From a virus, in IMG/VR virus record IMGVR_UViG_3300010396_000006, positions 1-64,000 of that record: 64,000 nucleotides of DNA; one strand, 5' to 3'. The notes below the pieces were generated by a model that saw nothing but the letters and a program-made list of their open reading frames with translations, was not told the DNA's origin and searched no databases. Shown here in pieces: positions 20,031-20,243 of this stretch. The translations under genes and the position numbers were made by a program. The first letter of the stretch is position 1, and each line of letters starts with the position of its first letter.

Positions 20031-20092
20031 CAAATCATACAGATTTTCGTTAGAAGCGTTGTCGAATCGTGACACAGTAACACACGACTCGA
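20027..20092 (+). promoter_or_regulatory. promoter-like site with operator palindrome and CAGTAAC leader hairpin
   Basis: TTGACA 20027-20032; AAATC-ATACA-GATTT 20032-20046; weak -10 TAGAAG; hairpin 20062-20092 with CAGTAAC 20075-20081 in the loop. Confidence 0.65.
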
Positions 20093-20230
20093 AGTCTTTC
20101 GTTCCGCTCCGGTCCTGAGCGGGAGTTACTGCCTGTTAAGGATGGCATCCGTCAGCGTCTCTTAATTGCGCGCTGATGCATGTATTTTCTCACATCCATT
20201 CGGGGTCGGATCGGAACGAAGGACTTCGAG
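20088..20230 (+). ncRNA. candidate regulatory RNA: long stem enclosing a GUUACUG-loop hairpin
   Basis: 31-nt arms 20088-20118/20200-20230 (30 pairs including 4 G-U, 1 mismatch); internal GCGGG-AGTTACTG-CCTGT; GGATG/CATCC and GTCAGCG/CGCTGAT helices. Confidence 0.7.
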
Positions 20231-20243
20231 CAAAGGGAAATTG

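Follow-up and report, generated by a model that had tools for sequence, protein, structure and literature searches.

The phage RNAs closest to the element described here include the P4 CI RNA and the P1 c4 RNA, which can regulate in cis or, once they have been processed, in trans. The lambda N leader carries nutL, with its boxA and boxB, followed by an RNase III-sensitive hairpin that lies between nutL and the start of N, and phage T7 has RNase III sites between cistrons. In the 64,000-nucleotide (nt) stretch analyzed here (the window), which is the first 64 kb of the 105,647-bp IMG/VR virus record IMGVR_UViG_3300010396_000006 of an uncultured phage, with 123-bp direct terminal repeats, positions 20059-20243 are best explained as the structured 5′ leader, about 185 nt long, of an operon encoding a helicase and a DNA methylase. 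Two hairpins of this leader present the complementary loops CAGUAAC and GUUACUG, 50 nt apart on one transcript and both mostly unpaired, and CAGUAAC is also the loop of leader hairpins elsewhere in the genome. What is new here is an orthologous leader with the same two loops in a distant phage, relative A; a literature search found no description of such a phage leader. The tip of the second hairpin (HA) probably pairs with the CAGUAAC hairpin, most likely in the same molecule, and we give a probability of roughly 40% to a cis-acting leader switch in which HA would mask the operon's own CAGUAAC hairpin during transcription and so set helicase-methylase expression. The parts of the leader are as follows.

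20027-20032, + strand: −35-like TTGACA overlapping the dnaN stop codon (20028-20030), read from the sequence and of the same hexamer type as at the other leader sites
20032-20046, no strand assigned: palindrome AAATCATACAGATTT, a putative phage-wide operator found in the sequence, lying here in the promoter spacer
20050-20056, + strand: −10-like TTAGAA/TAGAAG, non-consensus with the final T missing, read from the sequence
20067-20087, + strand: hairpin H1, stem UCGUG/CACGA with an 11-nt loop containing CAGUAAC (20075-20081), from the minimum free energy (MFE) fold and pairing probabilities
20088-20118, + strand: 5′ arm of the long stem P1, from the inverted repeat and fold
20119-20136, + strand: hairpin HA, stem GCGGG/CCUGU with loop AGUUACUG, from the fold and pairing probabilities
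20140-20197, + strand: hairpin HB, third arm of a three-way junction, with apical loop UCUUAAUU, from the fold
20200-20230, + strand: 3′ arm of P1, from the inverted repeat and fold
20234-20238, + strand: Shine-Dalgarno-like AGGGA, 3 nt past the stem and 5 nt before the ATG

The arms of P1 form the best inverted repeat of the window (31 nt, 84% Watson-Crick), and counting them pair by pair gave 26 Watson-Crick pairs, 4 G-U pairs and a single C-U mismatch. This reproduces the 30 of 31 pairs, with four of the five non-Watson-Crick positions being G-U on the + strand, on which an original prediction made from the sequence had founded its claim of selection on RNA. Folded as RNA, the + strand of 20031-20250 reached −87.7 kcal/mol (z-score −5.46, with 0 of 200 shuffles as good) and the − strand −68.1 kcal/mol (z-score −3.15). 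At the four wobble positions of P1 and at both wobbles of HA, the G-U of the + strand is an A-C on the other strand. This asymmetry and the compensatory stem changes in the orthologous leader described below support a structure at the RNA level. In the junction, HA follows P1 directly (0 nt), 3 unpaired bases separate HA from HB, and 2 more separate HB from the returning arm of P1. Hairpin HA, with a 5-bp stem that includes two G-U pairs, exposes the anti-loop GUUACUG (20125-20131) in an 8-nt loop, as had been proposed; the predicted probability that this anti-loop stays single-stranded is 0.84, and that of the CAGUAAC upstream is 0.76. The stem also ends at the ribosome-binding site (RBS), as foreseen, stopping 3 nt before AGGGA. 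A further proposal, that the two folds compete through overlap, held in part: the minimal H1 (20067-20071/20083-20087) abuts the P1 arm, and only an extended form of H1 with an A-C mismatch competes with it, over 4-5 nt.

No U-tract follows either structure in this phage, where HA runs into UAAGGAUGG and P1 abuts the RBS, and HA is thus not a terminator hairpin. A terminator scan of 19900-20350 found no G+C-rich stem with a direct U-tract, and hence none between dnaN and the leader, and a strict sigma-70 scan called no promoter before the leader. Since the junction with dnaN lacks a terminator and the leader promoter is weak, part of the transcription may enter from upstream. Among the Rfam covariance models, no family reached its gathering score in the 64-kb window; at E values up to 10, there were two chance-level matches in 19900-20400 and one in the leader of relative A. 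A match to a known phage RNA (C4 or c4-like), which the original prediction had proposed to look for, was accordingly not found over the window or in both leaders, nor did ARAGORN detect a tRNA-like element in the leader. We considered a short leader peptide encoded where HB begins (7 versus 20 codons) and dropped it, as similarity was absent.

The CAGUAAC loop belongs to a larger set. In the window, CAGTAAC occurs 8 times versus 1.65 expected, and on the gene strand of the whole genome 10 times versus 1.7 expected under a first-order Markov model. Eight of those 10 copies are intergenic (1359, 13669, 20075, 42958, 63560, 66792, 75317 and 101226), and all eight lie in hairpin loops whose stems vary from site to site while their arms stay complementary; the original prediction had counted five such loops. 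In an unbiased tally of 7-mers in non-coding hairpin loops, CAGTAAC ranked first, with 6 sites here and 7 in relative A. Seven of the eight hairpins begin 8-20 nt past a clear TTGACA-17-TAnnnT element, the motif at 1359 being weak, and an AAATC-N5-GATTT palindrome is often also present. Four of the sites in the window outside the helicase leader, all read from the sequence, are listed here.

1359-1365, + strand: CAGUAAC leader hairpin with the weakest stem
13669-13675, + strand: CAGUAAC leader hairpin after TTGACG-17-TATTCT
42958-42964, + strand: CAGUAAC leader hairpin after TTGATT-17-TAGAGT
63560-63566, + strand: CAGUAAC leader hairpin with 11-nt complementarity to HA

A fixed loop, varying stems and promoter-proximal placement point to 5′-leader hairpins of transcripts made by the host polymerase. 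A protein-binding role like that of nut sites and boxB is plausible for them. Some of the hairpins are followed by boxA-like motifs, (C/A)TTCTT or CTCTTAA, such as CGCCTCTTAAAAACAA at 75317, which are absent at other sites and in relative A.

For the anti-loop, it is the placement that is unusual and not the frequency, as GTTACTG is not enriched in the genome (2 copies on the gene strand versus 1.3 expected). The complement of CAGTAAC in a non-coding hairpin loop occurs once per genome in this phage and in relative A, and only in this leader; the four other GTTACTG copies of relative A are inside genes and outside loops. The Markov expectation for GTTACTG in the 214-nt leader is 0.0025. Wobble-tolerant anti-loops of the form GTT[AG][CT]TG gave many matches, being common words. 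The core 7-bp duplex has an energy of −8.8 kcal/mol at most sites, and the 8-bp versions of relative A reach −13 to −15 kcal/mol. The longer match of 11 nt at 63560, which had been pointed out before, is real and has an energy of −18.8 kcal/mol; an extension of this kind has a chance of about 3% over eight sites, is unique to that one site, and has no counterpart in relative A. These energies do not discriminate between pairing in cis and in trans.

We reached two relatives of the phage through their DnaN homologs, both syntenic and distant, and read their whole records. Relative A (IMG/VR 3300031251_000970, 81.9 kb) has 40 proteins in common with this phage at 25-65% identity, and its gene order at the locus is identical: dnaN, a 220-nt spacer, helicase and methylase, the three proteins being 44%, 49% and 45% identical, respectively. 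CAGUAAC is the leader loop at six promoter-proximal sites on other stems, three of which precede orthologs of genes that stand behind a CAGUAAC hairpin here. The leader between dnaN and the helicase gene has a −10-like TACAAA whose final T is missing as in this phage, and holds a CAGUAAC hairpin with stem UCGCUU/AAGCGA. The HA of relative A, GCCGG-GGUUACUG-CCGGU, stands 47 nt downstream of that hairpin, is again the first branch of a three-way junction with spacers of 0, 3 and 2 nt, and is followed by UCAAGUCA, which has no U-tract, so that it is not a terminator hairpin there either. Both loops are unchanged. Around HA, a block from GAGC to AAG is identical at 19 of 25 positions between the two genomes, and the rest of the leader has diverged. 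Among the 15 junction-proximal pairs, 8 are the same, 3 have changed on one side, 4 have changed on both sides, and none is broken. The start-to-start distance of the two motifs is 50 nt here and 47 nt in relative A, although the intervening sequence is a 31-nt arm in this phage and, in the other, an 11-nt arm preceded by a linker of 17 nt. We ruled out a protein-coding cause of the conserved block, as the reading frames do not agree and, in this phage, are broken by stop codons. Taken together, the conserved junction, the maintained pairing, the presence of the anti-loop at this one place, and the exclusion of coding argue from sequence comparison that the leader RNA and its complementary loop are real and under selection.

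The two leaders differ in how they end. P1 has only 10-11 pairs in relative A, where the closing stem is followed by a U-tract, UCUAUUUUUU. The 5′ arm of this closing stem can pair with either UUCGCUGACUGA or UCGGCGUCUA (locus L117, 7677-7730, minus strand), and UCGGCGUCUA and a small hairpin between the alternative segments are each followed by a U-tract, an arrangement that resembles an attenuator with a choice of terminator and antiterminator. The − strand of this leader folds slightly better than the + strand (−63.0 versus −59.8 kcal/mol).

Relative B (IMG/VR 3300050120_000121, 99.9 kb, 83% complete) has 33 proteins in common with the phage and lacks the helicase-methylase pair after dnaN. 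Its leader loop is (N)GUGCGAA, found at four promoter-proximal hairpins (record positions 20840, 28296, 64915 and 80923), with a ACTCTTGCG motif after each of them and a boxA-like GGCTCTTAAC before that motif at two sites. Such variation in leader-loop identity between related phages is as expected of a specificity determinant. In this record, 83% complete, the complement of GUGCGAA occurs only within genes and never in a leader loop; leader hairpins can thus occur in a phage that lacks an anti-loop RNA, and the anti-loop is tied to the locus after dnaN.

Under the cis-acting switch, the leader would start with a standard H1, followed by the three-way junction closed by P1, which ends at the RBS. 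The loops of HA and H1 would pair within one transcript. Since HA would be transcribed some 50 nt later than H1 and some 80 nt ahead of the 3′ arm of P1, the two loops could meet first, as a kissing complex or a 7-bp helix, and their pairing would mask a CAGUAAC signal that stays accessible in the other seven operons. As H1 abuts a rigid 31-bp stem in this phage, loop pairing would exclude full P1. One state would then have the loops paired and the arms open, and the other would have the loops free and P1 closed against the RBS or, in relative A, closed and followed by the U-tract in a terminator-like form. In this way the leader may set the amount of helicase and methylase, possibly through a factor that occupies the CAGUAAC loop.

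Several observations are consistent with such a switch. The spacing of H1 and HA has been kept even though the intervening parts differ, a constraint not required of a loop that acts only in trans. Elsewhere in the genome, at 51466-51560, an independent unit has a first-hairpin loop, UUGGGCA, whose complement is the loop of the unit's terminator hairpin, 54 nt further on, and a unit in relative B (locus L081, 72274-72338) has a 10-nt loop-loop complement 55 nt apart; counting intergenic loop pairs gave 4 matches at 3 loci versus 0.6 in shuffles. Given the conserved spacing and this cis unit in the phage's own genome, pairing in cis is no less likely than pairing in trans. When the transcript was folded up to HA only, the MFE structure paired CAGUAAC with GUUACUG in both genomes. 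The tie of the element to the one locus after dnaN, and not to the cargo genes, likewise speaks for pairing in cis.

Other results count against the switch. The prefix folds just mentioned are no more stable than shuffles (z-scores −0.9 and +0.2). Only two genomes carry the element, relative A being the sole relative with it, and their loops are identical, so that what we see is conservation without any compensatory loop change. In the modeled finished fold, the two loops would stand at opposite ends of a 31-bp helix of about 90 angstroms, and pairing in cis could then be only transient or belong to another conformation. In both genomes the leader is preceded by just a weak promoter-like element, at which the strict scan called no promoter, and H1 may therefore not lie at a 5′ end here. 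The likely output also differs, with a U-tract only in relative A and a long RNase III-type stem only here. From these two sequences, we infer that the loops pair, that they do so in cis, and what the output might be.

The original prediction preferred a different mechanism, control in trans. In a model of this kind, the leader would give off the junction RNA, in this phage through an RNase III cut within P1 and in relative A through termination at the U-tract; the GUUACUG of the free RNA would then kiss CAGUAAC in the leaders of the seven remaining operons, altering their stability, their translation or the access of a loop-binding factor. The best argument for this is that the cis partner is out of reach in the finished fold here, so that GUUACUG, displayed at the far end of a stem that is both long and stable, is left free for other molecules. 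Perfect 7-nt targets are present in the seven other leaders here and 8-nt targets in five leaders of relative A, with the duplex energies given above for the core, for the eighth pair and for 63560, and it is established that P4 CI and P1/P7 c4 are cut from the leader they regulate. Yet the conserved spacing of H1 and HA is left unexplained by a released RNA, relative B has four GUGCGAA sites and no anti-loop in a record that is 83% complete, the 11-nt extension is confined to one site, and the match to Rfam C4 is absent. Four of the eight sites read CAGUAACC, opposite whose extra C HA offers A and not G. No terminator stands behind the target hairpins and no RBS overlaps them; their distance to the start codon is 30-64 nt (in the helicase leader, 91 nt), so that the proposed output in termination or translation has no visible handle. 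We found nothing that shows control of dispersed operons in trans and consider it unlikely, and we are equally doubtful of a trans-acting master regulator that would govern a phage-wide regulon through the shared kissing-loop address, perhaps as an anti-antiterminator against a loop-binding protein. Of the original prediction as a whole, the selected RNA with an exact anti-loop stands, and trans action on the regulon gives way to a cis reading that is at least as likely.

A second explanation makes no use of loop pairing: P1 would be an RNase III site, or bulk next to the RBS, that uncouples the helicase-methylase operon from dnaN in the manner of the T7 and lambda N-leader sites mentioned above, and HA would be kept for protein binding or for the stability of the junction. 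Its 31 near-continuous pairs exceed the roughly 20 bp needed by RNase III, the stem ends 3 nt before the Shine-Dalgarno sequence, and read-through transcripts must cross the leader because no terminator separates it from dnaN. RNase III is encoded in genomes of Schlesneria (profile PF14622 above cut-off in three of them), which is the probable host group judging by DnaN similarity, the closest cellular DnaN homologs being from Planctomycetaceae, Schlesneria included. Near-perfect hairpins of about 45 and 20 pairs, unrelated in sequence to this leader, also occur on two metagenome contigs (L137, approximately 1540-1735, and L206, approximately 2370-2470), immediately upstream of the RBS of a helicase gene whose product is about 50% identical, and a long stem before this helicase gene may be a recurring theme. 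What weakens this explanation is that the loop, and not the long helix, is conserved: P1 shrinks to 10-11 bp in relative A, where HA and its loop are retained. An 8-nt loop would hold the complement of the regulon 7-mer in about 1 of 8000 cases at uniform odds, and less often with dinucleotide bias. We regard such a processing or translation-control stem as improbable. Far less probable still is a feature of the DNA itself, such as a replication origin, a cruciform, or inverted CAGTAAC...GTTACTG protein sites among replication genes. The location between dnaN and a helicase gene would suit it, as would the inverted-repeat arrangement of the two motifs at a distance of 43 bp, and the − strand beats shuffles too and folds slightly better in relative A. 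It is opposed by the wobbles of P1 and HA, which are G-U on the + strand only, by eight CAGTAAC sites set between differing but complementary arms, which recognition of double-stranded DNA would not need, and by the conservation in relative A of the RNA junction and not of the long palindrome. The probability left over goes to mechanisms beyond those considered here.

We searched widely for further copies. No close relative of the phage was found in IMG/VR, in JGI metagenomes or in 398 Planctomycetales genomes, and helicase homologs there at 48-65% identity have unrelated upstream regions. For the helicase, none of 21 loci in IMG/VR at 56-65% identity has the leader, none of 80 loci in JGI metagenomes has CAGTAAC or GTTACTG upstream, and the 398 Planctomycetales genomes contain the helicase in 8 cases and the leader in none. 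In those genomes, the two-motif pattern gave 6 matches, fewer than the reversed-pattern control, and in IMG/VR the two motif patterns returned chance matches plus relative A only. Searching IMG/VR with DnaN alone gave no relatives, a TerL search gave only relatives at 29-37%, and the DNA pattern of operator plus promoter had 49 single chance-level matches in IMG/VR. An nhmmer search with the H1-HA core against 1.87 Mb of collected sequence found just the two known copies. The nearest DnaN homologs are on the ENA/Logan contigs P0008 (109 kb) and P0010 (113 kb), with others on P0004, P0006 and P0007. In a 68.7-kb phage without the leader (IMG/VR 3300033412_000010, 50219-52512, locus L127), the methylase is 71% and the helicase 58% identical to the products of 20244-22628. 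As the methylase is thus closer to that of a leaderless phage than to that of relative A (71% versus 45%), the element follows the locus after dnaN and not the cargo, which suggests that the coding cassette may have been exchanged behind a retained leader. At a helicase homolog on the short contig C602 of the Planctomycetales genome G332 (locus L264, approximately 1090-1130), we noted a 7-bp GGCCAAT/ATTGGCC hairpin 68 nt before the start; its 20-nt loop contains CAGTAAC, with no complement nearby, possibly by chance.

Nearly all genes of the window are on the + strand, and those that flank the leader are given below. The helicase start codon at 20244 is backed by N-terminal homology with the helicase of relative A.

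18933-20030, + strand: phage dnaN (sliding clamp), three domains of Pfam DNA_pol3_beta, directly upstream of the leader
20244-21629, + strand: SNF2-type helicase gene, first in the operon (Pfam Helicase_C)
21642-22628, + strand: N6/N4 DNA methyltransferase gene (Pfam N6_N4_Mtase)

Elsewhere in the window, a 23-nt inverted repeat with 96% complementarity (6994-7016/7276-7298) encloses 259 nt between a helicase gene (5213-6988) and the gene at 7327, and might represent either a second large leader structure or a small mobile insertion. The spacer after the gene at 23994-25607 (25600-25810) has two long hairpins, with −89 kcal/mol for 211 nt, and a 7-nt complementary pair, TGATTAT/ATAATCA, 85 nt apart. 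A single tRNA-Gly gene with the unusual anticodon ACC is located at 28188-28266.

If the loops pair, the phage would have two layers of RNA control, a hairpin signal in front of eight operons and a dedicated RNA that hides or binds that signal. Acting in cis, the leader would exempt one operon from the control exerted on the whole regulon, and acting in trans, one RNA would be a switch for the whole regulon; the cargo of the operon, a DNA methylase and a helicase, consists of genes likely to be under tight control. The element, about 185 nt long and available in two natural versions, adds a case to the uncatalogued loop-loop leader RNAs of phages, from a host group, the Planctomycetes, in which phage gene regulation is almost unknown.

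Like the P4 CI RNA, in which seqB is complementary to seqA and seqC, and the c4 RNA of P1 and P7, this is a leader RNA with a short exposed complement to its own transcript. It differs from them in having no sequence or structure match to the Rfam C4 models, in using a single 7-nt loop instead of two sites, and in that its targets are apical loops spread over eight operons and not sites next to an RBS or terminator. With the lambda N leader it shares the order of promoter, small hairpin with a defined loop, large stem and RBS, including a long stem near the start codon; unlike in lambda, the small loop lacks GNRA character, and neither an N-like protein nor boxA was identified here, the protein not having been searched for, and the hairpin of lambda, for its part, has no loop that matches boxB as a complement. 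The recurrence of one small loop on differing stems, at eight sites here, six in relative A and, with another loop, four in relative B, resembles the nut sites of lambdoid phages. As in ColE1 RNA I and RNA II, whose hairpins have 7-8-nt loops, the loop-loop helix would be 7 nt long and fully complementary; unlike those RNAs, which come from opposite strands and pair over their full length after kissing, the complementarity here ends at 7 nt (8 in relative A). The nearest comparison is within the same genome, where the unit at 51466-51560 likewise has a host-type promoter motif and a first loop complementary to a loop about 50 nt downstream in the same leader, the complement of the helicase leader spanning 7 nt at a spacing of 50 nt and that of relative A 7-8 nt at 47 nt. 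In that unit the loop pair is private and the second hairpin is a terminator, whereas in the helicase-methylase leader the first loop is regulon-wide and its partner is a branch of the junction.

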